From Calditrichota bacterium (GTDB lineage: Bacteria > Electryoneota > B3-LCP): a stretch of DNA of 64,000 bases. The stretch is from contig JAGVQJ010000153.1 in assembly GCA_020051775.1 (NCBI GenBank), positions 4,115-68,114 of the forward strand, read 5' to 3'. Below, piece after piece: positions 13,907 through 57,668 of this stretch. Positions within the stretch are counted from its first letter, which is position 1. Every line of letters begins with the position of its first letter. Both the position numbers and the translations under genes were made by a program. Below the pieces are notes generated by a model. That model saw nothing but the letters and a program-made list of their open reading frames with translations. It did no database searches and was not told the DNA's origin.

Positions 13907-14641
13907 ATGGTTAAACTGGAAAATCTGACCAAAGACTTTGCCCGTGTTCGAGCAGTGGATGATTTATCCCTGCACGTGCGGCATGGTGAGATATTCGGCT
14001 TTTTAGGCCCTAACGGAGCGGGCAAGAGCACGACTATCCGTTTGATGATAGGTTTACTAAAACCCACTTGGGGACGCGTTCTCGTTGATGGGATTGATCT
14101 GGCCACAAAACCGCGCCATGTGAAACGTATCATCGGTTATGTCCCCGATCAACCCTTCCTTTATGATCGCCTGTCCGGTCGTGAGTTTATCACCTTTCAC
14201 GCTCAGCTCTTCCAGGTGCCACAGGATCGCCAGCAGAACGCATTAAGCGAACTTTCCAAACGATTGGGGATGGACGGTCTCTTAGACGAGAGGATCGAAA
14301 GCTACTCCCAGGGCGCTCGTCAAAAGATCGCAATTTTGGGAGCGCTGATTCATGAACCTCGACTTATTGTACTGGACGAACCGTTGGTAGGATTGGATCC
14401 CAAATCAGCGCGCATTTTGAAGGATATCCTGCGCGAACGCGTCAACGACGGCGCCACCGTTTTTCTTTCCACGCACATCCTCCCCATCGCGCAGGAATTA
14501 TGCGATCGTATGGCCATTATAGATCGGGGGAAATTGTTGGCTCTGGGCGGATACGAGGAGATCCGCGGTCGTGAAGATGCGAATCTGGAATCGGCCTTTT
14601 TACGCATTACGGAAAGCAGCCCGACAGGCGAAACGCCATGA
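13907..14641 (+). CDS. ABC transporter ATP-binding protein
   Basis: Walker A GPNGAGKST, the ABC signature YSQGARQKIA and Walker B LIVLDEP are present. The ORF track opens at a TTG at 13817. The ATG at 13907 (MVKLENLTKDF) matches the usual ABC ATPase N-terminus. The start remains uncertain. Confidence 0.8.
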   Translation: MVKLENLTKDFARVRAVDDLSLHVRHGEIFGFLGPNGAGKSTTIRLMIGLLKPTWGRVLVDGIDLATKPRHVKRIIGYVPDQPFLYDRLSGREFITFHAQLFQVPQDRQQNALSELSKRLGMDGLLDERIESYSQGARQKIAILGALIHEPRLIVLDEPLVGLDPKSARILKDILRERVNDGATVFLSTHILPIAQELCDRMAIIDRGKLLALGGYEEIRGREDANLESAFLRITESSPTGETP

Positions 14642-16356
14642 GGTCGGACTTTCCACGGGGTTCCTCGGCGCGAGCGTTGCTCCTGCTACTGGACCTGAAA
14701 CTGGCAGACTGGGCTGGAGCTTTACGGGGCTTAAAACCCTCAAGAATGATCCGACTGGCGGTCTCACTGATAATGGCCGCGGGAATTGCCGGCGCGGTTT
14801 ATCAGTTCGATCTCTTTGTATTTGGCTATTTGATGAACGTGCCGGACTTGGGCAAGTTGGTCATCGCCCGTTTTTTCGAATCGGCTTTTTTACTGTTTTT
14901 TACAGTTCTACTTATTTCCACCGCATTAACTGCTCTGTCCATGCTCTATCGCGAGGACGAGCTGGCCCTCCTCTTTTCCCTGCCGGTTTCCGAAGGGGTA
15001 ATCTTCACCGCCAAGTATTTGGAAGTCATCCTGTACAGTTCCTGGGCTTTGATTGTTCTGACCATCCCCTTCATTCTCTCCTATGGCGTGTACTTCAAGG
15101 TCAATTGGATCGCGTATTTTAGTCTATTCGGCGGTCTAATGTTACCGCTGGTGATGATTTCCGGGTCTGTCGGCGTGGCCGGAGCGCTGATGCTGCGCTG
15201 GTTATTCGGCGGCATCCCCCGGCGCAAAGTGCTGATCTGGGCCGGTATTACCATGGGGATTGTGGTCGCACTTTTTGTATTTATCATTTCGACGAATAAA
15301 GGCGTCAGCCAAAAAGGGATGCTCTACCTCTTTTCCTGGTTGGAGGCCGGTAGAGCTCAGGGCGCCACGCTAATCCCACACAAACTGATCGCTCAAGGGT
15401 TCACTTCGGTGCTGGAAGAACGATTCGATTCGTTGGAACGGATTATTCTGACTCTGCTGGGATTGTGCGCCTTGATTGTGTTGCTAACGCTGGACATGGG
15501 AAAGGTGTTGTACTATCGGAGCTACCTAGCGGGCAGCGATCGGTCGCTGACTCGCCTCAAACCCAAGCTTGCCAAAACCCCATCCAATTTTATGTTCAGC
15601 TGGCTATCCCCCCTTTATCGGGCTTTGATGCGCAAGGATTTCCTTGAATTTCGCCGTTATCCCTTGCAGTGGGGGCAGGTCTTTTTGCTGCTGGCATTCT
15701 GGGCGCTCTATCTGGCAAACCTCTTGAATGCTCACCGTTTCTTTGACGTCAGCGAACCCTTTTGGAAACTGGCAATCTTTTATGCCAATTTTTGCTTTTC
15801 CTGCTACTTTACGGCAGCGCTGGCAGGACGCTTCGTGTTTCCTTTGATCAGCTTGGAAGGTCCGGCCATCTGGATTCTGCGTTCGGCGCCTCTGGCGATG
15901 GAAAGCGTGCTATGGTCTAAATTCTGGGGTGCATTTTCCCCCTTGTTTTTCTTATCCGGAAGCATGGTATTGATTGGTAATATCTCCTTAGGTATACCCT
16001 TAGGTATGACTGAAGCTTCGCTGTTGGCTATTTTCGTAGTCTCGTTTTCCATGACCGCGCTGGCGTTGGGTTTGGGAGCCGTGTTTGCGGATTTCTCGCA
16101 GCGTAATCCCATGAAAATCGCCAATACCCCGGGAGGCATCCTGTGCATATTGATCAGCCTGGTTTTTATGGTGCTGATCACGACCATTTTCGCGTGGCCT
16201 ACTTACTTGTATTACAAATTCACTGGCTATCACACGGTTTACCCACTGAACGCCTGGACGACTTCCACCATTATCATCATCGCGCTGGGAATCGTCATGA
16301 CCATCTTCCCCTTGAAACTGGGCTTAAAAGCCCTGAACGCCGACCTGAAGGTGTAG
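14638..16356 (+). CDS. ABC-2-type transporter permease, large multi-pass
   Basis: 572 aa with many hydrophobic spans. The start overlaps the ATPase stop (ATGA). Confidence 0.65.
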   Translation: MRSDFPRGSSARALLLLLDLKLADWAGALRGLKPSRMIRLAVSLIMAAGIAGAVYQFDLFVFGYLMNVPDLGKLVIARFFESAFLLFFTVLLISTALTALSMLYREDELALLFSLPVSEGVIFTAKYLEVILYSSWALIVLTIPFILSYGVYFKVNWIAYFSLFGGLMLPLVMISGSVGVAGALMLRWLFGGIPRRKVLIWAGITMGIVVALFVFIISTNKGVSQKGMLYLFSWLEAGRAQGATLIPHKLIAQGFTSVLEERFDSLERIILTLLGLCALIVLLTLDMGKVLYYRSYLAGSDRSLTRLKPKLAKTPSNFMFSWLSPLYRALMRKDFLEFRRYPLQWGQVFLLLAFWALYLANLLNAHRFFDVSEPFWKLAIFYANFCFSCYFTAALAGRFVFPLISLEGPAIWILRSAPLAMESVLWSKFWGAFSPLFFLSGSMVLIGNISLGIPLGMTEASLLAIFVVSFSMTALALGLGAVFADFSQRNPMKIANTPGGILCILISLVFMVLITTIFAWPTYLYYKFTGYHTVYPLNAWTTSTIIIIALGIVMTIFPLKLGLKALNADLKV

Positions 16357-16554
16357 TCTCAAGTTTCGAGTCTCATGTCTCGTGCCCAAGTCATTGTGAG
16401 GAAGCCCCACCGGAGCTGACGAAGCAATCCCCTCCAAAGCGTATTCCCGCCTAAAATCCTTGCTTTTAACCCGAATGACAAGTATATTTTCAGTGGGGGA
16501 ACATGGGAAAAGTAGGACATAGAATAAGTAATCGAACTCTACTGGAATTTTCTT

Positions 16555-16887
16555 ATGCCAACGTCAGCCGAAAAAGAGCTGTCTGACCGGATCGCACGGG
16601 AATTCGCTGCAGAACTTCGACAACGCTTGGGCGACAGCGTGCATAAGATTATCCTGTTCGGATCACGAGCTCGAGGACTTTTTACTGAAGGTGAGGAGTT
16701 TAAGTTCGTCGTAACCGTTGATCATAAAGATCGAGAGATTGATGGACAGATTCTGGACTTTGAAGGGGAGTACTTGGATCGCTATGACCTACTTTTTTCT
16801 TCTCAAGTTATGACGGAAGACATTTGGGAAATTGAGCAGCGTGGTATGTGGGGAGGAGCTATTAAGATGGAAGGAATTAGGTTATAG
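16555..16887 (+). CDS. Minimal nucleotidyltransferase (MNT)-fold protein with a non-canonical active-site motif
   Basis: KIILFGSRARG is identical to the hG[GS] motif of the canonical MNT at 24833. The expected S-D-I-D-L stretch is replaced by TEGEEFKFVV. It lies immediately upstream of a low-GC orphan gene. Confidence 0.5.
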   Translation: MPTSAEKELSDRIAREFAAELRQRLGDSVHKIILFGSRARGLFTEGEEFKFVVTVDHKDREIDGQILDFEGEYLDRYDLLFSSQVMTEDIWEIEQRGMWGGAIKMEGIRL

Positions 16888-16896
16888 GAAACGGCG

Positions 16897-18477
16897 ATGT
16901 CTAAGAAGGTAAAACCAAGAGGACACTATACACCACTAACAAAGCATAAAAAGGAGGGGACCTTACTAAAATCTCCTCTTGGAAGTTATTCAAATTTGGA
17001 GGTCATTGATTGGCCACGAGATTTACTTCCAGAGCATCTTTGGATTGCATCATTGGCTGAATATCATACTCTAGATTCTTGCTATTTGCCTTTTTATAAA
17101 TTCATGGATGCTCTCGACGAATATATACCTGAAGGTAAACAAGCAATAGGTCTAATTTCCGATTTTTCTTTAGTTCCTGATATTAAAAGATCAGAATTTA
17201 TTCAAAAGCACGACTTGCTAATCGAGGCAAGTTTTTATCACCCAGTAGGTCGAATATTATCTCTTTATCCAGAAAATCCAGCTGCATGGCTTATCAGTAA
17301 AGTCTCGTTAGAGCGTGATGGCCATTTAGATCCGTTGGTAGAACTTGCGCATCTTAGAAATTTGGTTATCAAATTATTAGATGGTAAAGATGCATTCTCT
17401 GGTCTCATAAGATCGCTACCATTCGGAAGACTTTTAAAGCACGGTAAATTTAAATTTGCTGCTGGTATGGGAGTTATTGATTTGATACCAAAATATCCGG
17501 TGAAATGTACTGATGAAGAGAAACGATATGTGGAATCTCAAACTAGGATGGCGGTGAATGCGGCCATTCAATTAGATGAACTTTACAAAGCACATATCTG
17601 GCCTAAGCAATTTTGGAATAATAATTTTTACATGACAATTTGTAGGCCAGTATTTATTGTATCACCTGGGGCAAAACCCTTAATAGATGACGAAATTTCA
17701 ACAATTTCCAATAAATTAAAAACGAACTCAAAAATTGCTTTTGAATATCTTGAGAAAATTCGACGAGAGGCAAAATGTGATTTATATAACTCTTCAAAAG
17801 ACGAAGTGTTATTTGGATTAATTTCTCGTTTAATTCGTTTATATTTACTTTTCGCAAATGATCAAAATCTTTGGAGCAAAGACGTTGGAGGCATTATATT
17901 GCGTTGCTTAGCCGATACAGCAATTACATTTGCCTATTTAGCAAAGAAAGGCGATAATGAGTTATTTATGAAATTTATTGAATACGGCCAAGGCCAAGAG
18001 AAACTTCATTTACTACATCTGCAAGATAATTATCCAGACTCTAAATCACTAGATGGAAGGGATACAGATTCTATAGCTGAAGAGCTCGGAGGGTTCTCCA
18101 TAGAGATGATGAATATAGAACTTGGTCAATGGACAAAAAAAGATACAAGGCAACTTGCGAAGGATGCTGGCATGCAGGATGTCTACAGACTTGTATTTTC
18201 ACCTACCAGTGGAGATGTTCATGGTACTTGGGCAAGTTTAGTACAATCAAATCTCTGCGTTTGCACTGAGCCATTACACCGTGGACATAGGCTACCATCC
18301 ACCTTGCTACCACCTGTTTATTATGGTATAATCTGGGTTACGCAACATATTCTAGAAGAATCTCTAAAAATCGGAATTGATCTTTTGAATTTTCCAACCT
18401 TAGTTAAAGAGCTTGAGCCACTACCTCTTTTGGATTCAAACAGAGAATCAGAAAAATCAGGATTACAGGCAACGTGA
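16897..18477 (+). CDS. Hypothetical 526-aa, predicted mostly alpha-helical protein of unknown family on a low-GC island
   Basis: Long ORF with an AGGAAA ribosome-binding site. A sampled 60-nt stretch (17041-17100) is 32% GC, against about 55% in the flanks. I recognise no motif. Its stop overlaps the GTG start of purL (GTGA). Confidence 0.55.
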
Positions 18478-20717
18478 AACCCAATCCCCCCGTCACCTTA
18501 AGCCTCGCCCAACAGCATGGATTGTCGGAAGAGGAATACAATCGCATCTTAGCGATTTTAGGCCGTGTACCGACCTACCCCGAACTGGGTGTATTCTCCG
18601 TCATGTGGTCGGAACACTGCTGCTACAAGAACAGCATCGCCCACCTGAAAACCCTGCCGCGCAAAGGCCCCCGTACTCTGGTCGAGGCGGGCGAAGAGAA
18701 CGCCGGCCTGGTGGACATCGGGCACGGTCTGGCAGTAGCCTTCAAGATCGAATCGCACAATCACCCCTGCGCTGTGGAACCGTACCAGGGCGCGGCCACA
18801 GGGGTGGGCGGCATCATGCGGGACATCTTCACTATGGGCGCGCGTCCCATCGCCAGCCTGGACAGCTTGCACTTCGGCCCGTTGGATAACGCTCGCAACC
18901 GCTTTCTCATGGACGGCGTGGTGCGCGGCGTGGGTGATTACGGCAACTGCCTGGGCATTCCCACAGTAGCAGGGGAAACCATCTTTCACGACGGCTACAG
19001 CACCAATCCCATCGTCAACTGCATGGCCGTGGGAGTCGTCAAGAAAGACCGCATCGCTTCGGCTACGGCGGAGGGTGAAGGCAATACCGTCATCATCTAT
19101 GGATCGCGCACCGGCCGCGACGGCATTCACGGCGCCACCTTTGCCTCCGAGGAGATCAGTGAAGAGAGTGAGGCCAAGCGATCTTCAGTGCAGGTAGGCG
19201 ATCCTTTCGCGGAGAAGCTATTGTTGGAAGCCACCCTGGAACTGGTCAAGTCAGGTGTATTAGTGGGTGTGCAAGACATGGGTGCGGCGGGAATAACCTG
19301 TTCGTCGGCGGAGATGGCCGCGAGAGGCAAATCCGGTATTAGCATTAACTTGGATAATGTGCCTCTTCGCGAAAAGCACATGTCAGCCTATGAGATTCTA
19401 CTGTCGGAATCCCAGGAGCGAATGCTGGCTGTGGTTTACCAAGGCCGCATAGAGGAGGCTGAAGCCATCTTGGATCGCTGGGAAATTCTGCACGAGCGGA
19501 TCGGTTCGGTGACTAACGACGGCAAAATGCGTGTTTCTTTCCAGGGTAGTGAGGTTTGCGACATTCCCGCCTGGGAACTGGCTCTGGGCGGTGGCGCACC
19601 GGTTTATCATCGTGAAGCTCGCCGTCCCGCTATCCTGGATGAATATAATGATGCCGACCTAACTCCGTATCGGCTGGATCGCAACTGGAACGTGGCGCTG
19701 TCTCAATTGCTGGCCTCGCCTAATATCTGCGACAAGGGATTCATCACAGGTCAGTATGACTCCACCGTGCGCACCAATACGGTTCTGGGGCCCGGAGGCG
19801 ATGCGGCTCTCTTGTGGATTAAAGAAACCACTCTCGGTTTGGCCATGACCACCGACTGCAATCCGCGATTCGTATACCTGAACCCGCGACGGGGTACGGC
19901 TTTGGCAGTGGCCGAAGCCGCTCGCAACGTATCCTGCACCGGCGCAGAACCGATTGCCATCACCAATTGCCTGAACTTCGGCAATCCTTACAAACCTGAA
20001 TCCTTCTACTTCTTCCAGGAAGCTGTCGCGGGGATGGGCGAAGCTTGCCGCATATTGGGCACTCCGGTGACCGGCGGCAACGTATCATTCTATAACGAAA
20101 GTGAAGAAACCAGCATCCTCCCCACGCCGGTCATCGGTATGATCGGCCTGATGGAGGATGTTGATCACGCAGTGCGGTCGCATTTCCAGAAGGAAGGTGA
20201 CGTCGTCATTCTGTTGGGCAAGACCAAAGCCGACCTGGGCGGGTCCGAATATCTCTGGCATCTCTACGATGTCTTAGCCGGGGACGCCCCGGAATTGGAT
20301 TTAGAGTTGGAGAAACGCACTCAGTTCGTATTACGGAAAGCCATCAATTCCGGCTGGGTTAGGTCGGCTCATGACTGCTCTGAAGGCGGTCTAGCAGTCG
20401 CGCTGGCGGAATGTTGTCTGTTGGACCCTGAACATCCTATCGGGAGCAAGATAAATATCAAACCTGGCAACTTAACCGTGGCAGACCTCCTATTTGCCGA
20501 GAGTGCCTCACGAATCATTATTTCTTGCCCTGCTGAATTGAAAGATGAGATTCTTAATCTCGCGGAATTTATGGAGGTGCCAGCAGAAATCATCGGAGAA
20601 GTCGGCGGTGACCGTCTGGTAATCGCTGATTGGATTGACCTATCTGTGAATGAACTGATTCATATATATTATCAGGCTCTACCGAATTATTTCCATAATA
20701 TTGCCATAGCGCAGTAG
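18474..20717 (+). CDS. purL: Phosphoribosylformylglycinamidine synthase subunit PurL
   Basis: The N-terminus [38 protein letters not shown] is the PurL signature. The protein is 747 aa, with AIR-synthase-like tandem domains. Confidence 0.9.
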
Positions 20718-20850: not shown

Positions 20851-21831
20851 ATGCGTGTACTCATGACGCTTTTAACATGTCTGGCCATGATGACTCTGAT
20901 TTCGAATGCGCAGGTGCTTTATGAAGAGCACTTCACCGGCGGGGTGACCAACTTGGCTTGGCAGGCGGCCTTTGTTGATTCTACGGGAATCGGCAATAAT
21001 ATGCAGGTCGAATTGGATCCGACCTCACCGGGTGGCGGTGACCTGTTCGTGGGAAAACTGGGTAATGACCTATCCGGCGGGAATGTGGGTTTGACCTATG
21101 CGGGAGACAGCTTGTTGACCGATTACACATTAACAGCTTGGGTGTTTGCTACCGTTTCAGCCGGTACAGGTCCTTATAATTCCCTGGTGTTCAGATACAC
21201 TTCCATTTTTACTTATTATCAATTGGACACTGACTTCGACTCCAGCCAGCGTTTGCGTTTCCGCAATAGAAACGGAGACCTGCCGCTTGTCATCCGCGAT
21301 TGGACTGCCGCAGAAATTCCCGGTGGTATTCCGACGACTTCAAGCTGGCACAAAATGACCATCCGTATGGTGGGAAATCAGTTCTGGCTTTACTGGGACG
21401 ATGTCATCCTGCCCGGATGCCCCTACACCGACGACACTCATACACGCGGATACTTTGGCGCATACATTTTTAATATGTTGAGCACTACTTCCGTCACCAA
21501 AGTTGAAGACGTAGTCGTCAGTTCCTCGGAATCAGCAGCGCCGCCGACGATCACCATCCTGCCCACCAATGCAGGATTACTGGCCGCGTATCCTAATCCC
21601 TTCAATCCTTCCACGAATCTCACCTTCACGCTGGATCGTTCTGCAGCCGTCAAGCTGTCTATTTTCGACGCTCAAGGCCGTCCGATATCCACCTTGATCA
21701 ACGGACAGATCCTGCAGAGCGGACAGCATACTATGCCGTGGAATGCCGGCAATCTGCCTGCGGGTGTCTATCTAACCCGATTAGAAGCCGGAAACCAATC
21801 GGTTTCCCAGCGAGTTGTTCTGGTGAAGTGA
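20851..21831 (+). CDS. Secreted jelly-roll (LamG / DUF1080-like) protein with T9SS CTD
   Basis: A signal peptide is present. The CTD reads YPNPFNPSTNLTFTL...IFDAQGRPI...AGVYLTRLEAG...VVLVK. Upstream are a TTGATT, 17-nt, TATTAT promoter and an AGGAGG ribosome-binding site. Confidence 0.7.
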   Translation: MRVLMTLLTCLAMMTLISNAQVLYEEHFTGGVTNLAWQAAFVDSTGIGNNMQVELDPTSPGGGDLFVGKLGNDLSGGNVGLTYAGDSLLTDYTLTAWVFATVSAGTGPYNSLVFRYTSIFTYYQLDTDFDSSQRLRFRNRNGDLPLVIRDWTAAEIPGGIPTTSSWHKMTIRMVGNQFWLYWDDVILPGCPYTDDTHTRGYFGAYIFNMLSTTSVTKVEDVVVSSSESAAPPTITILPTNAGLLAAYPNPFNPSTNLTFTLDRSAAVKLSIFDAQGRPISTLINGQILQSGQHTMPWNAGNLPAGVYLTRLEAGNQSVSQRVVLVK

Positions 21832-21945: not shown

Positions 21946-22275
21946 CTATTGCTTTCCATAGCCTATAAATCCATCATCCCCGCCGCAGTAACGCGGTGGG
22001 TTGCCGTTTTCGGGTAGTTCTCCAGGTATCAGCACAGGACCTTTAAGGATATTTTGCCAGAAACTCGTCCAAAACCACTGGAACGGACTGGAGTAGGTCC
22101 AGGAATCAACTACCGTAAACCACCACTGCATAGGGGTAGTTTGGTCGTCATTTACAGCAACGTATTGCGGTATTCCGTTTTCTCTGGCCTGCACAGGCGT
22201 GTTCAAGGCTAATAGAATTAGACCGACCAGTAAGCACGCCGAAGCGGCGAGTTTAATCATGAGTATTGTTTTCAT
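21946..22275 (-). CDS. Small secreted Trp-rich protein
   Basis: 109 aa with a clear signal peptide (MKTILMIKLAASACLLVGLILLALNTPVQA). The mature part is W-rich (QWWFTVVDSWTYSSPFQWFWTSFWQN). Its start overlaps the stop of the upstream regulator gene (ATGA). Confidence 0.45.
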   Translation of the reverse strand: MKTILMIKLAASACLLVGLILLALNTPVQARENGIPQYVAVNDDQTTPMQWWFTVVDSWTYSSPFQWFWTSFWQNILKGPVLIPGELPENGNPPRYCGGDDGFIGYGKQ

Positions 22276-23285
22276 GACTGTTTCCCCTCACTTATGGAGT
22301 CGGTCTGGCGATCAGCCATACCGAAGTAGAAAGCGAATAAATTATCGGCTGAATCGGGAGCATTTTGGTGTGCGGATTCGGCTTCGCGCGCCAGGAAAGC
22401 GCTAACTTCCCGGAAAACGCATCCGGCGCTGGTGGGATTCAAATGATACCAGTGCGTCCGAGCCATAGAAGGCGAGTCTGGATCTTGAAATCTGCTGTGG
22501 ATGACATCCAACATGGCTTGAGATACTTCGGTGGGTACGTTGCCATTGGGAACCGGCGCGGAACCCAAGTAGAAATGGTAAGGTTTAGTGACCCTATCCT
22601 GATGCTTGCATTCCATCTCATAAGCATCGCCTGTACCGACCAGATACTCTTGAAGAGCGCGTTGTAAACCTTCCGCCTGGGATAATCCCATCCGATAGAC
22701 CCTTAATACGGGTTCACCGATAGTGTGCTTAAAAGCATCCACGTGGCTGAGCAAACCGGAGAGCCGAGCGCTGACGTCAGTGGGATCAAACAGGGTAACG
22801 TGGCTGTCTACGGTCTGGTAAAGGGTTCTGCCTTCAGCGTACTCCGAGGTAATGCTGCCTTTCTGTTCCAGATCCTTCAGCATGGCCTTAAGCGACCGCT
22901 TCTGGAGGTCGTAAGGCGCGTGGATCAGGTAGGAAATTTCGGCCAGAATTTGTTGGAAGGTTTGAGGCTTTTCGGTCAGCAGGGTCAGAATTTCCCTGTG
23001 GAGCTGGCGGACTTTCACAAAGCTGGTGGTGACTTTGTTCAAATCATCCAGCTCTTTCAAACTGTACTGCACGTTGCGCAGCGATATGCCGAGATCGGAT
23101 ACGACCGCCATCTGGGCCGCTGAGGCGGGTTTCTCATCGTATTGTCGCCGGCAAACGTCCACCATGGCCAACTTCAGCAAGTTCTTCATGGTGGCAATAT
23201 CGCGATACCCTTTTTCCAGGGCATAAGAGCAGATGCTCTGGAAAAGCCCATAAAACAATTGGTCTTCGCTGTCTCGCACCTGCAT
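22272..23285 (-). CDS. Putative transcriptional regulator with two winged-HTH-like segments and an unknown C-terminal domain
   Basis: 337 aa. HTH-like segments are AAQMAVVSDLGISLRNVQYSLKEL and QTFQQILAEISYL...LKDLEQKGSI. It is divergent from pduL, with palindromic sites in the shared upstream region. Confidence 0.45.
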   Translation of the reverse strand: MQVRDSEDQLFYGLFQSICSYALEKGYRDIATMKNLLKLAMVDVCRRQYDEKPASAAQMAVVSDLGISLRNVQYSLKELDDLNKVTTSFVKVRQLHREILTLLTEKPQTFQQILAEISYLIHAPYDLQKRSLKAMLKDLEQKGSITSEYAEGRTLYQTVDSHVTLFDPTDVSARLSGLLSHVDAFKHTIGEPVLRVYRMGLSQAEGLQRALQEYLVGTGDAYEMECKHQDRVTKPYHFYLGSAPVPNGNVPTEVSQAMLDVIHSRFQDPDSPSMARTHWYHLNPTSAGCVFREVSAFLAREAESAHQNAPDSADNLFAFYFGMADRQTDSISEGKQS

Positions 23286-23383
23286 GGCAACCTCCTACCC
23301 ATGTCATTCAAGAAATCCCGTGGATTTCCACTTCGGTGTCGTTCTTGCAGCTAAAATATACTATAGAAAAACCGTAAAATCAA

Positions 23384-23399
23384 GTGCAATTTTTTGCAC
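23384..23399. promoter_or_regulatory. Palindromic operator-like site GTGCAA-N4-TTGCAC (copy 1)
   Basis: The half-sites are perfectly inverted around a TTTT spacer and are preceded by an A-rich tract. It sits 99 bp upstream of the regulator start at 23285. Confidence 0.4.
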
Positions 23400-23492
23400 C
23401 CCAAGGGTTTCTCCGGGTTTTCACTTCCCCAGAAATTTTCTCAGGCTGAGTCTTTCCGTCTATAATATAATAAGAAAAAAGGCGAAAATCAT

Positions 23493-23508
23493 GTGCAATT
23501 TTTTGCAC
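23493..23508. promoter_or_regulatory. Palindromic operator-like site GTGCAA-N4-TTGCAC (copy 2)
   Basis: Identical 16-mer with 27 of 28 nt of extended flank identity (aaaatca[a/t]gtgcaattttttgcacc), 109 bp from copy 1. Confidence 0.4.
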
Positions 23509-23757
23509 CAACCCTTATTTTTGGGGGTTGCTTCAAGATGTAATATAATCAATTTGATTGAAAAAAGCAAGGATTATTTAACTAACATCGAACATATTTG
23601 ACAATTGGTAATTCAGGAATTCTATCACCCACTGCGGAAGAAGCAGCCTTCTGGGAATTGATACGTAACAAATCCTTGAGGCAAGAGTTGATCCATCCGC
23701 TCGCGCCCTGATTTAGCTTGACATTCCCCGTTTTTCAAGCTATCTTAATTCCATTCA

Positions 23758-24832: not shown

Positions 24833-25159
24833 ATGACCGACCAAGCCCAACGCGTAATCAAAAAAATCACCAACCGCATCGTGCGCAAGTTCCACCCGGA
24901 TAAGATCATCCTGTTCGGTTCTTATGCACGCGGGGAGGTCACCCGCGATAGCGATATTGATCTCCTGGTGATCATGGCCATCGAAGGATCAAATCGCCAA
25001 AAAATGGTGCAAATATACGATGAAATTGGCGCTGTTGGCATCCCTAAGGACGTCCTTGTTTATACGCCAGCCCAAGTTCGTAAATATGGGAATGTAGCTG
25101 GAACAACTCTTAAGGCAGCCTTAAGAGAAGGCGTAATCGTCTATGAAAAAAAATCCTAA
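24833..25159 (+). CDS. MNT-type nucleotidyltransferase antitoxin (type II/VII TA)
   Basis: Canonical motif ILFGSYARGEVTRDSDIDLLV. The size from the internal ATG is about 108 aa, and 17 nt overlap the downstream HEPN gene. The ORF track starts earlier, at 24713. Confidence 0.7.
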   Translation: MTDQAQRVIKKITNRIVRKFHPDKIILFGSYARGEVTRDSDIDLLVIMAIEGSNRQKMVQIYDEIGAVGIPKDVLVYTPAQVRKYGNVAGTTLKAALREGVIVYEKKS

Positions 25160-25556
25160 CCACGATATTGCACGCGAGTGGGTAATGTTAGCCTTGGCAG
25201 ACTTTGCCAATGCCGATAATATCTTTCGCTTGGAATTAGATCCCACGTATACGACCATCTGTTTCCATGCACAGCAATGTGTTGAAAAGTTCATTAAAGC
25301 AGCACTCGTCTTCCATGATATTGATTTTCCAAAAACACATGATATCACTGAACTGATAGAGCTTTTAAAACCCAGCTTGAATCTGAAACGGACTATTCCC
25401 AATGCCGGGCAACTGACTCAATTCGCCGTCACTACAAGATATCCCGGCTCCTGGGGTGAAATCACCAGAGAAGAAGTCGAGGCGGCTTTGCGCACAGCTG
25501 ACAAAATTGCCCACAAATTAACGCTTTACTTTCAGGAAAACGGACTAATAACTTAA
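25143..25556 (+). CDS. HEPN domain toxin partner of the MNT
   Basis: 137 aa, all-helical. The HEPN-like pattern is ...AQQCVEKFIKAAL...THDITELIELL...TTRYPG... Confidence 0.6.
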   Translation: MKKNPNHDIAREWVMLALADFANADNIFRLELDPTYTTICFHAQQCVEKFIKAALVFHDIDFPKTHDITELIELLKPSLNLKRTIPNAGQLTQFAVTTRYPGSWGEITREEVEAALRTADKIAHKLTLYFQENGLIT

Positions 25557-25562
25557 AGAACT

Positions 25563-26879
25563 ATGCCCGAAGCTACTATGGACAAAATCGTCGCGCTGGC
25601 CAAGCGGCGCGGCTTTGTGTTTCCCTCCTCCGAAATATACGGTGGCCTGAATTCCTGCTGGGACTACGGCCCCTTCGGCGTCGAACTGAAGAAGAACATT
25701 CAGGAATTCTGGTGGCGATCCATGACCCTGCGGCCTGATGTGGTCGGCCTGGACGCCAGTATCCTGATGCACCCCAAGGTCTGGGAAGCATCCGGACACG
25801 TAGAGAACTTCACCGATCCACTGGTGGACTGCCGGCAGTGCAAGGCGCGCTTCCGGGAAGACGAGATCCCGCCGGAGAAAATGGCAAAACGCCAATGCCC
25901 CAACTGCGGCAACAAGGACACCCTGACCGAAGCCCGCCGCTTCAATCTGATGTTCAAGACTTTCATGGGGCCGGTGGAAGAAGACGCCTCGGTTGTGTAT
26001 CTACGTCCGGAAACCGCGCAGGGGATATACGTCAATTACCTGAACGTGCAGACCACCACCCGGTTGAAAGTCCCCTTCGGCATTGCGCAGGTGGGCAAGG
26101 CTTTTCGCAACGAGATTACTCCCGGCAACTTCATCTTTCGCACGCGGGAATTCGAGCAGATGGAGATGCAGTTCTTCGTCAAACCGGGCGAGGATGGGAA
26201 GTGGTTCGAGTACTGGCGCAACCAGCGCATGGAGTACTACCAGAAACTGGGCATCCGACCGGAGAAACTGCGCTTTCATCCTCATGAGAAGGACGAGCTG
26301 GCGCACTACGCCAAGGAAGCCTGCGACGTGCAGTACGAATTCCCCTTCGGTTGGCAGGAACTGGAAGGGATCCACAACCGCACGGATTTCGACTTGAAGC
26401 GTCACCAGGAATATTCGGGGAAATCCCTGCTTTACTTCGATGACGCTACAAATGAGAAGTATCTGCCCTTTATCATCGAGACGTCGGCGGGCTTGAATCG
26501 CACGATGCTGACAGTCCTGGTGGACGCCTACTGGGAAGATACGGCGCATGAGCGCGTAGTACTTAAACTGCATCCCCGACTGGCCCCGATAAAAGCGGTG
26601 ATTTGTCCGCTCGTAAAAAAAGACGGGCTGGCAGAAATCGCCGAGAAGATCACCGAAGACCTCCGCTGGCATTTCCCCGTGCTGTACGATCAGCAGGGCG
26701 GCATTGGCAAGCGCTATTACCGCCAGGATGAGATCGGCACTCCCTACGGTATCACTGTAGACTACCAGACGAAGGAAGATCAGACAGTCACTCTGCGCGA
26801 TCGCGACACTTTGGATCAAATTCGTCTACCCTATACCGCACTGGCTCAAGAGATCGAAAAACGGCTGCGATCAGCCTGA
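25563..26879 (+). CDS. glyQS: Glycine--tRNA ligase (class II, alpha2 type)
   Basis: There is strong similarity to Thermus-type GlyRS: KRRGFVFPSSEIYGGLNSCWDYGP, YLRPETAQGIYVNY, GKAFRNEITPGNFIFRTREFEQME and SAGLNRTMLTVL. Confidence 0.9.
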   Translation: MPEATMDKIVALAKRRGFVFPSSEIYGGLNSCWDYGPFGVELKKNIQEFWWRSMTLRPDVVGLDASILMHPKVWEASGHVENFTDPLVDCRQCKARFREDEIPPEKMAKRQCPNCGNKDTLTEARRFNLMFKTFMGPVEEDASVVYLRPETAQGIYVNYLNVQTTTRLKVPFGIAQVGKAFRNEITPGNFIFRTREFEQMEMQFFVKPGEDGKWFEYWRNQRMEYYQKLGIRPEKLRFHPHEKDELAHYAKEACDVQYEFPFGWQELEGIHNRTDFDLKRHQEYSGKSLLYFDDATNEKYLPFIIETSAGLNRTMLTVLVDAYWEDTAHERVVLKLHPRLAPIKAVICPLVKKDGLAEIAEKITEDLRWHFPVLYDQQGGIGKRYYRQDEIGTPYGITVDYQTKEDQTVTLRDRDTLDQIRLPYTALAQEIEKRLRSA

Positions 26880-54134: not shown

Positions 54135-54266
54135 CGATGCTTTTCATTGAAACTTTGCCCGTTCGGTAAAGATTAAAAGCAGACGTATCAGGCGATGGAG
54201 TTCGCCTTTAACCGCTGAAACAGCTGATGACTCCTACTGGTTCATTGCAGCAATGGAGCGTCAAGA

Positions 54267-55418
54267 ATGAAAGCGGACATTGTTCCTTTAATCGTCGGAT
54301 TGCTGGTTTTTATGGCCAGCCTTATTTCCCTGAAACTCACCCTCTCAGTCGCCATTATAGAAATCCTGGCCGGCGCCATTGCCGGCAATTTAGGTTTAAA
54401 GACCGAGGACTGGATGCTATATTTGGGAGGTTTCGGCGGCATTCTTCTGACTTTTCTAGCTGGGACGGAAATAGATGTTGACCTGATGAAAGAGCGGTTT
54501 AAGCAGAGCTTCCTCATCGGGTTCTTTTCTTTCTTTGCGCCTTTTACCTTGGTGTTTCTTTACACATACTATGTATCACATTGGTCACTGCCGGCCGCCT
54601 TAATTGCGGGAACAGCCTTATCAACTACCTCACTGGCTGTGGTCTATTCTGTTTTAGTGGAAACGCACTTATCGTCAACTCAGATCGGCAAACTGATCAT
54701 GGCTTCGACATTCATTACCGATATGGGTACAGCGCTGGCCTTAAGCATTTTATTCACGAAACCAACCGTTTACACCGGAATATTTATTGTGGCTTCCATC
54801 TTGGTTATTCTTTTTGCGGTAAAATTCTCCCACCGAATCTTCGACAATCCGAAACTCAAAAATAAGGTCATCGAACCAGAAATTAAGTACATATTTTTGT
54901 TACTCCTGGCCTTTATGTATTTCGGAAATCTGGGAAATGGTCACGCAGTTTTACCGGCTTTTGTTCTGGGATTGCTGATGTCTCGTCATTTCACGGAGAC
55001 CTCGACGACGCGCGCGGTCAGGAACAGGCTTCGGACCGTAGCCTACGCCATGATAACACCAATATTTTTCGTATTAGGAGGGCTGCGGATTTCCCTGCCC
55101 ATGATTCTTGCGGCTTTAGGGTTATTCTTGATGTTATTTCTGTTAAAGATTGTGGCGAAATTCGTGGGTGTTTATTTTCTGGCGAAAAAATATATCCCGG
55201 GTGGGAGTATTTACACGACTTTATTGATGAGCACCGGGCTTACTTTCGGGACTATTTCCAGCGTTTTTGGCCTGAACGCCGGCCTGATTGATCAGACTCA
55301 GTATTCTGTGTTGGTGGGTGTGGTGATTGCCAGCGCCGTCATCCCGACCTTTATCGCGCAAAAATGGTTTATGCCGGTCCATTCGGAAGATATCGTGGAT
55401 ATTAACGGTGAATCATGA
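54267..55418 (+). CDS. Cation:proton antiporter (Na+/H+ exchanger family) membrane protein
   Basis: 383 aa with about 11 hydrophobic helices. The N-terminal pattern is typical of CPA transporters. Confidence 0.7.
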   Translation: MKADIVPLIVGLLVFMASLISLKLTLSVAIIEILAGAIAGNLGLKTEDWMLYLGGFGGILLTFLAGTEIDVDLMKERFKQSFLIGFFSFFAPFTLVFLYTYYVSHWSLPAALIAGTALSTTSLAVVYSVLVETHLSSTQIGKLIMASTFITDMGTALALSILFTKPTVYTGIFIVASILVILFAVKFSHRIFDNPKLKNKVIEPEIKYIFLLLLAFMYFGNLGNGHAVLPAFVLGLLMSRHFTETSTTRAVRNRLRTVAYAMITPIFFVLGGLRISLPMILAALGLFLMLFLLKIVAKFVGVYFLAKKYIPGGSIYTTLLMSTGLTFGTISSVFGLNAGLIDQTQYSVLVGVVIASAVIPTFIAQKWFMPVHSEDIVDINGES

Positions 55419-56447: not shown

Positions 56448-57230
56448 TTAAGCTTTGATGTACCCCAATTTCTTGGAGATTTGACTGGCGATGTCTTTAA
56501 CCGAAGCGCTGAATTTGTCAATCATATCCTTGGTGCAACGGTAGGCTGGAGCGAAGACGTCCACAATCGCTATGATCTCACCGGCTTCATTGCGCACCGG
56601 AGCGGCGATGCTGATGACCATTTCATCACCCTCCTCGGTTTTCTCATAGGCTACGCCTTTCTCACGGACGGTGCCCAGGTCTTTTTGCAGGGTCGCGAAC
56701 GAATATTTCTCGTTCTCCAGGATGGTTTTACGGCCCTTGTGATCCATTATCTCTTTAATCACCTCATCGGACATGCCGGCCAAGAACATCTTTCCAGCAG
56801 CCGAATGGGACAGTGACAGACTTTCGCCCAGGTGCGAACGCACTTTTATGGGCTTGGATGTCAACACTTCATCGGAAACTACGAGACGGGAATTAGTCTT
56901 ATCAATGATGGCAAAACGTGCTGATTCCCCGGTTGTTTGCGCCAGCTTCTCCAAGTAGGGGGCGATCACTTTAGTCGGGCGAATGTTGTTCAAGATTTTC
57001 CGCGATAGCTCGAAAATCTTGGGGCTGAGGCGATAGCGCCCTTTCGCCTGATCTTGATCAACGAAGCCTTCATGAACCAATGTTGTCAGGATGCGGTGCA
57101 CGGTGCTCTTGTTCAAACCGACTCTTTCCCCGATTTCCGATACGCCCATTCCCTCAATGCTCTCACATAGCACTTCTAAAATAGCCAGTGATTTAATGAG
57201 GGATTGTACTAAATGAAAATTTGCAGCCAT
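56448..57230 (-). CDS. IclR-family transcriptional regulator
   Basis: An N-terminal wHTH (LAILEVLCESIEGMGVSEIGERVGLNKSTVHRIL) and a C-terminal IclR effector domain are present. Confidence 0.85.
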   Translation of the reverse strand: MAANFHLVQSLIKSLAILEVLCESIEGMGVSEIGERVGLNKSTVHRILTTLVHEGFVDQDQAKGRYRLSPKIFELSRKILNNIRPTKVIAPYLEKLAQTTGESARFAIIDKTNSRLVVSDEVLTSKPIKVRSHLGESLSLSHSAAGKMFLAGMSDEVIKEIMDHKGRKTILENEKYSFATLQKDLGTVREKGVAYEKTEEGDEMVISIAAPVRNEAGEIIAIVDVFAPAYRCTKDMIDKFSASVKDIASQISKKLGYIKA

Positions 57231-57668
57231 GTTTTCTACCTCAGGAGCTTGGATGAAGCTCTGGTTAGGAGGGTTATTGTCTCTTGGGAAGTGGATTCAA
57301 CATACCACCACCAGACAGTACTTATGGGCGATAATATAATAACTCCTCATATTTATGTCAAGCGATTTTTTGAATATATTACGAATATCTTTTTAGTCTA
57401 ATAATTAGTTAATTATCTGCTTGAGTTTTAATTATTGGAGAATGGCCATTATTGAATCATGTTTATATTTTATGAGCCTTATGAAGCAATATTATATACT
57501 GTGTTTTAAGATAGATAATATTTGTTCCATGTCATTATAATGTTTTAATAATATAGATTCTTCGAGAACCACCACGGTGGAATGATTGCTCTGATAAAAG
57601 CATGGCGCGTGCTTCGGAAACCATTTTTGATTTCGAAGTCCCCCTCGCATTTTGATTCGTCGCTTGGA

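Follow-up and report, generated by a model that had tools for sequence, protein, structure and literature searches.

We analysed a 64,000-nt stretch of DNA from a Calditrichota bacterium (assembly GCA_020051775.1, contig JAGVQJ010000153.1, positions 4,115 to 68,114; hereafter the window), with a focus on two adjacent + strand open reading frames (ORFs) directly upstream of purL, at 16555-16887 and 16897-18477. An initial annotation of the window had marked these two ORFs, and we confirm both; it had taken them together as one foreign insertion, a small nucleotidyltransferase plus an orphan 526-aa protein, resembling a defence module. The comparisons below probably resolve this apparent module into two known things, a decaying module of HEPN toxin and minimal nucleotidyltransferase (MNT) antitoxin, and an acquired gene homologous to that for DitA of the Aditi defence system.

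Layout and synteny of the ABC_tran_2-purL site

The conserved left flank of this variable site is the gene for an ABC_tran_2 permease (14638..16356, +; Pfam PF16949, E = 3.7e-84), followed by an intergenic region (16357..16554, GC 0.449) in which no sigma-70-like site was found on the + strand. The 110-aa product of the MNT gene (16555..16887, +) is assigned as an MntA-type antitoxin by its NTP_transf_2 domain, by its AlphaFold2 (AF2) model with Foldseek matches, and by positional orthologs in three related contigs, L006, L007 and L008. A spacer, GAAACGGCG (16888..16896), separates it from the gene for the 526-aa protein (16897..18477, +), which we call DitA-like for its matches to the PADLOC DitA profile and the Pfam family DUF5677. 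The spacer forms the left junction of this foreign gene and measures 9 nt, so that the close spacing first described stands but the length then given, 10 nt, does not. The conserved right flank is purL (FGAM synthase II; 18474..20717, +), whose GTG start shares the letters GTGA at 18474-18477 with the TGA stop of the DitA-like gene, as had been reported. The purL start is supported by alignment of the N-termini across four loci (VKPNPPVTL in the window; MKPDPPVTL, VNQPLVTL and MKTAPPITL elsewhere), and DNA homology to the purL of L006 (annotated with FGAR-AT_linker/AIRS/AIRS_C domains) begins at 18475, the second base of the GTG codon at 18474.

The same site occurs in L006, L007 and L008, Zixibacteria-like contigs with the gene order ABC_tran - ABC_tran_2 - (DUF433) - MNT - HEPN - cargo - purL. 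The closest homologs of the window MNT are the positional orthologs at these three loci, where the flanking DNA is collinear with the window on both sides and the ABC_tran_2 proteins show 61-68% amino-acid identity. The additional DUF433 gene of L006 lies at the position matching 16357..16554, and L007 has a second MNT-HEPN pair upstream of its orthologous MNT. Where the window has its spacer, the relatives have an overlap between the stop of MNT and the start of HEPN. What stands between MNT and purL differs from locus to locus: an intact 128-aa HEPN and then a 258-aa protein in L008; a HEPN split into 51-aa and 81-aa fragments in L006 (L006:3396-3806); and a HEPN truncated at 73 aa in L007 (L007:3491-3712), followed by a 304-aa protein and a ParE-like pair. 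Two further loci, L035 and L036 (ABC_tran_2 51% identical in each), carry HEPN and RelB-like genes at this place, followed in L035 by a 298-aa protein and an MqsA-like protein, and in L036 by a 256-aa DUF5677-domain protein. The window has no HEPN gene here and has the DitA-like gene alone, which fills the HEPN slot from ~9 nt past the MNT stop as far as the start codon of purL; a tblastn search of 16887-18477 with five HEPN queries showed no remnant of HEPN. Since the MNT has orthologs at the same site and no trace of HEPN is left, we take the MNT to be resident and only the DitA-like ORF to be foreign. The nucleotidyltransferase, initially counted as part of the insertion, is thus the ortholog of an MNT that is paired with HEPN in relatives.

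The genes directly 5' of purL vary over the five related loci (HEPN fragments, the 258-aa protein, the ParE-like pair, the MqsA-like protein and the short DUF5677 protein), which excludes a housekeeping gene held in synteny with purL; no PADLOC match was found among the other cargo genes. The ABC_tran_2-purL gap is a small natural hot spot for the exchange of toxin-antitoxin (TA) genes and cargo in this lineage. The suggestion that the insertion had been specially wired into purL expression does not hold up, because cargo in the relatives likewise overlaps the purL start (L007) or ends 8 nt short of it (L008), so that tight packing is the rule at this site. The DitA-like ORF may run on to its first stop, which happens to overlap the purL GTG; its last ~12-25 residues are unconserved and modelled with low confidence.

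The DitA-like gene is the lowest-GC 1.58-kb segment of the window: its GC is 0.366, against a mean of 0.514 (standard deviation 0.025, minimum 0.444; z = -6.0) for a baseline of other 1.58-kb segments of the 64-kb stretch. Its GC at third codon positions (GC3) is 0.262, where the flanking ABC_tran_2 and purL genes have 0.64 and 0.63. The sliding-window calculation thus finds a composition that is not uniform and a 526-aa gene that is compositionally foreign; the AT-richness first noticed is real, although the whole-window GC average is 51% rather than the ~55% then estimated. The MNT gene (GC 0.462, GC3 0.432) has a mild AT shift similar to that of the window's other TA genes.

We found no direct or inverted repeats bounding the insert, no tRNA near it, no RNA elements in the region and no terminator-like site on the + strand in 16200-18800. 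A sigma-70-like site (TTGCTA-17-TATAAT with TG; 18304..18332, +) lies within the 3' end of the DitA-like gene, ~140 nt before purL; because such sites are no more numerous in the region than expected from shuffling, we treat it as a lead only.

Among the cargo of the relatives, a ~300-aa family recurs in two lineages (L007:3989-4903 and L035:4615-5511; 37% identity, E = 9e-70) that has no Pfam or PADLOC match; to the eye, its motifs FSDNxIxGxP and FIRGGIT look like those of a nucleotide-cyclase-type fold. At L036:9517-10542 a RelB-like gene is followed by the 256-aa DUF5677-domain protein (Pfam E = 3.8e-8) directly 5' of purL. The latter has no detectable similarity to the DitA-like protein of the window, and its layout indicates that DUF5677 proteins can occupy a toxin-like position behind an antitoxin-type gene.

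The minimal nucleotidyltransferase

The 110-aa MNT reads KIILFGSRARGLFTEGEEFKF. It matches NTP_transf_2 (PF01909) with 27.1 bits against a cut-off of 21, and in PADLOC it matches only PDC-S09. Its AF2 model is confident (pLDDT 93.9) and has the canonical α-β-β-α-β layout; the top Foldseek matches, at probability 1.00, are the MNT antitoxins of HEPN-MNT complexes (8xeh_E, 8xeo, 7bxo and 6m6u).

The active site is another matter. The G-S-X10-D-x-D motif is retained in 14/14 database homologs, and the window copy has G36-S37-X10-E48-F-K50 in its place, in agreement with the initial observation that the catalytic DxD had been lost. The serine just before it is likewise present in all 14 (S-D-x-D), and E-E-F-K is seen at these positions in the window copy alone. 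The GSX10DXD motif is needed for MNT activity (PMC7641770), and in MntA the double change D39E/D41E, which turns DXD into EXE, abolishes AMPylation of HepT and weakens neutralisation (Yao et al., PMC7641770). Since even EXE is inactive and the window protein moreover has lysine at the second position, this MNT is, to judge by the alignment, almost certainly catalytically dead; with the DxD Mg2+-binding motif lost (GSX10EXK), AMPylation should no longer be possible. Of 42 columns that are invariant in the seven closest MNT homologs, the window copy keeps 35, and four of its seven changes (Q30H, Y35F, D42L, S47E, D48E, D50K and P98M) fall in residues 42-50. The MNT has also diverged further than its flanking genes would lead one to expect. 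The window and L006 MNTs are 55.5% identical and those of L006 and L007 65.5%, while the flanks rank in the opposite order (window-L006 versus L006-L007: ABC_tran_2 68.1% versus 64.2%, purL 93.4% versus 87.2%). This extra divergence is consistent with a constraint that was altered or relaxed once the toxin had gone.

In L006 and L007 the HEPN partner is broken while the MNT keeps its DxD, and from these sequences toxin decay seems to be recurrent in their lineage.

The window contains a second, intact MNT-HEPN pair (24833..25556, +; NTP_transf_2 E = 3.9e-13, HEPN E = 1.3e-24). Its MNT (24833-25159) reads KIILFGSYARGEVTRDSDIDLLV, keeps SDIDLLV and is 31% identical to the first. The pair has its stop at 25556, 6 nt before the glycyl-tRNA synthetase start at 25563, and a TA module pressed against a housekeeping start is a layout common to 24833-25563 and the purL site.

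The 526-aa protein and its family

The 526-aa protein matches the PADLOC DitA profile (PDLC03826) with E = 8.1e-27, residues 13-469 aligning to profile positions 5-444 of 486, and Pfam DUF5677 (PF18928) with 73.1 bits against a gathering cut-off of 27.1, over residues 305-450. Its homologs P0104, P0085 and P0055 likewise match the DitA profile. A word-indexed search returned over 200 full-length homologs, ~520 aa long and 43-54% identical, each of them with PF18928, and an exhaustive profile search found 1,843 clusters (at 50% identity) with E <= 1e-3, including 459 with E <= 1e-30. On these matches the protein is a DUF5677 member and a full-length DitA homolog, not the orphan it was first taken for; its family is sizeable (~1,840 clusters) and solo in all loci examined. 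The top 150 cluster representatives have a single architecture of ~500-560 aa, or fragments of it, with no domain fusion among them that would give a functional clue, and a cluster look-up for the window protein gave only 'hypothetical protein'. Neither the 526-aa nor the 110-aa protein has a match in PHROGs or NCBIfam, and no relatives of the DitA-like protein were found in a viral contig collection. The initial annotation was right that the large protein belongs to no known HEPN or Abi family: no such family matched, and hhalign against a HEPN alignment gave a probability of 0.2%.

To see the company that such genes keep, we compared 26 other DitA-like loci, of which 23 are from GTDB species representatives. 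These 23 are spread patchily across phyla (Chloroflexota, Planctomycetota, Myxococcota, Cyanobacteriota, Acidobacteriota, Bacillota, Gemmatimonadota, Chlamydiota, Auribacterota, Eiseniibacteriota, Heimdallarchaeota and Bathyarchaeia), and their proteins are 31-50% identical to that of the window. In 24 of the 26 loci the DitA-like gene has a higher AT content than the DNA on either side, and the homologs at other loci are not adjacent to purL. When 220 neighbouring ORFs were clustered all against all, no neighbour family recurred and no MNT appeared, which gives no support to the idea that a nucleotidyltransferase and a large protein form a conserved module. DitB is not recurrent among 132 scanned neighbours, of which at most one could match it, and ten immediate same-strand neighbours (nine downstream, one upstream) gave zero PADLOC matches. 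The 132 neighbours do include type I/II restriction-modification (RM) components, a CBASS cyclase, mads, Mrr, rve and IS21 integrases, AbiEi and Pnkp/Hen1, and they include plain metabolic and housekeeping genes as well. Single contexts feature an Eco57I-like methyltransferase and a TIR-PDDEXK protein beside a Mu-like prophage, an Mrr-like nuclease, and an HTH/ImmA pair. The scattered phyla, the AT-richness and the solo loci together point to a stand-alone, horizontally mobile family that often, if not in every case, lies among defence or mobile-element genes. Such neighbours, with the homology to DitA of Aditi, bear out the defence flavour initially sensed in the 526-aa gene. Split or truncated copies occur in 7 of the 23 GTDB loci (L025-L031), so that the family must often be pseudogenised. 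Pseudogenisation is common among defence genes.

The AF2 model of the DitA-like protein (pLDDT 76.9, pTM 0.48) is two-lobed and almost entirely helical, as had been predicted from the sequence; searches of the PDB and of viral models gave no structural relative. In a set of 111 diverse family members, 28 positions reach at least 90% conservation, and the window copy has them all. The conserved polar residues include a Cys2His2 set (C249, C456, H461 and H464), in a poorly modelled loop, that is plausibly a zinc site, and a further cluster of basic, His and Ser residues (R217, R311, R336, K369, R418, S438 and H442); acidic residues are absent from the set conserved in the family. A basic/His cluster with no conserved acid would point to the binding of nucleic acids or nucleotides, or to metal-independent phosphodiester chemistry, more than to a nuclease of the two-metal type, yet any specific biochemical reading of this kind is doubtful. 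A membrane protein was considered and rejected (maximum 19-residue hydropathy 1.49), and we infer that the DitA-like protein is soluble.

Interpretation and comparison with known systems

We consider it likely that the locus is a decaying type VII HEPN/MNT module to which an unrelated, horizontally acquired, solo DitA-like gene has been added at a cargo hot spot. What is seen here is ordinary turnover at a TA/defence hot spot, and no new two-gene system. In the proposed course of events, 16555-16887 would be the resident MntA-type antitoxin gene, whose HEPN toxin gene was deleted and which survives as a remnant that still folds and has an intact ORF; a foreign DitA homolog would have been acquired horizontally and would have settled exactly at the HEPN position of the relatives. 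Transcription of the DitA-like gene would most likely start upstream, take in the MNT remnant and read through into purL, and the product of the DitA-like gene may act alone as a factor of the defence or abortive-infection type. This general view of the DitA-like gene as a solo defence-type gene we hold tentatively, at a little under an even chance. Toxin loss can be traced in stages across the relatives, from intact (L008) through split (L006) and truncated (L007) to absent in the window, where the antitoxin itself appears dead.

Several points weigh against this interpretation. The MNT ORF is intact, its fold is confident, it keeps 35 of the 42 invariant residues, and its changes are concentrated at the active site, a pattern that also fits a retained non-catalytic role and not only recent decay; the 9-nt spacing from the MNT to the DitA-like gene would permit co-translation. 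Anti-phage activity has been validated for Aditi as a two-gene system and for no solo DitA-like protein, and in Enterococcus the five candidates found active did not include the DUF5677 ORF that had been assayed. The synteny comes from only three close loci, none from a close relative of the window's genome. The suggested zinc site and basic cluster are based on conservation alone, and structure searches gave no homolog.

Some of these points could be turned into a different proposal, that the dead MNT and the DitA-like protein form a new two-gene module in which the MNT has been recruited as a non-enzymatic antitoxin, adaptor or regulator. The two genes are on the same strand and probably co-transcribed; the MNT substitutions not seen elsewhere cluster at the active site and are not spread over the intact, confidently modelled protein; and at L036 the RelB-like antitoxin-type gene that precedes a short DUF5677 protein at the same site makes a TA-like layout conceivable. 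Yet an MNT or a recurrent neighbour is found at 0 of the 26 other DitA-like loci, DxD is kept in all 14 MNT homologs, and every recovered syntenic MNT has a HEPN gene, whole or broken, as its partner. The GC3 values also differ (0.43 for the MNT, 0.26 for the DitA-like gene), from which we conclude that the two genes did not arrive together. We therefore think such a module quite improbable. The same low expectation applies to a version in which a self-sufficient immune factor with a new helical fold has co-opted the dead MntA remnant as a non-enzymatic partner or regulator; if true, an antitoxin that had lost its own toxin would have found a second use with a newly acquired effector. The residual interest of the locus lies in the fold and mechanism of the solo DitA-like family, and to a small degree in this chance of co-option.

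The DitA-like gene might instead have nothing to do with immunity, being selfish or accessory cargo, or a decaying gene, that shares a domain with DitA. Aditi as described requires two genes and DitB is absent at the window locus; the Enterococcus DUF5677 candidate was not in the set of five active ones; many homologs sit among ordinary metabolic genes; 7/23 GTDB loci carry split or truncated copies; and relatives on viral contigs and PHROG matches were not found. We nevertheless judge this unlikely, since the DitA profile is matched over its full length, which is more than a shared domain, all 28 family-conserved positions are retained in the window copy, and the cross-phylum patchiness, the AT-richness and the RM, TIR-PDDEXK, Mrr, CBASS and integrase neighbours are typical of defence genes. 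Least credible of all is the suggestion, raised initially, that the small nucleotidyltransferase remains active, with E47/E48 serving as a non-standard acidic pair instead of DxD. Two adjacent glutamates are indeed left in the motif region, and the protein still has the GS dipeptide and an acidic residue at the third position (D in YDLLF). The aligned positions, however, are E48-F-K50, with the second Mg2+ ligand replaced by lysine; E47, at i-1, would point away on the modelled beta strand; the conservative change of DXD to EXE already kills MntA activity (PMC7641770); and the substrate HEPN is not encoded nearby.

Other features of the window lie apart from this locus. Downstream of purL, the C-terminal segment of a 326-aa protein (20851-21831, +) is found again in proteins of L034 and L036, at 31-42% identity over 70-106 aa, and its tail looks similar to a T9SS-type sorting domain. 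A 337-aa protein (22272-23285, -) has only weak winged-helix matches (GMT-wHTH, PadR and Csa3-like), all below cut-off, and its gene adjoins one of two short AT-rich stretches (23300-23700, GC 0.35-0.38; 57200-57450, GC 0.28-0.32). Both stretches lie between divergent or convergent genes, where they probably have a regulatory role. At 54182-54243 (+), upstream of an ORF starting at 54267, there is a fluoride riboswitch (RF01734, 65 bits).

Among known systems, AbiE, the CBASS cyclases and HalB of Hailong share with this locus the pairing of a nucleotidyltransferase-fold protein with a larger protein on foreign-looking DNA. The MNT of the window, however, has no AbiEii, CD-NTase or HalB match, only generic NTP_transf_2 and PDC-S09; the AbiE-like system initially suggested finds no backing, as neither protein matches an AbiE family in Pfam, PADLOC or NCBIfam. 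The type VII HEPN/MNT systems are closer: they have the same minimal nucleotidyltransferase fold, the nearest structures are their MNT antitoxins, and the orthologs of the window MNT stand directly upstream of HEPN genes, which are of the PF05168 type, class II in the scheme of PMC7641770. The window locus differs from these systems in having GSX10EXK for GSX10DXD and in having lost the HEPN toxin, so that it would be a remnant and no working system.

In the 526-aa protein, the Pfam domain DUF5677 spans the C-terminal lobe only, whereas the ~520-aa architecture with its conserved N-terminal lobe marks a specific subfamily. The closest likeness is to Aditi, described as two proteins of unknown function with no homology detectable by HHpred (Millman et al. 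2022, 10.1101/2022.05.11.491447), and still classed in later surveys as unclassified or of unknown mechanism. The DitA profile is matched near full length by the 526-aa protein and its homologs, which have no recognisable enzymatic domain either. The window differs in having no DitB, as the upstream MNT matches only PDC-S09 and the downstream gene is purL, and because DitB is absent the locus falls outside the Aditi system definition. System-level tools that require both DitA and DitB would presumably not call the solo DitA-like lineage as Aditi. With the mechanism of Aditi unknown, the solo DitA-like form may offer the simplest starting point for studying that mechanism.

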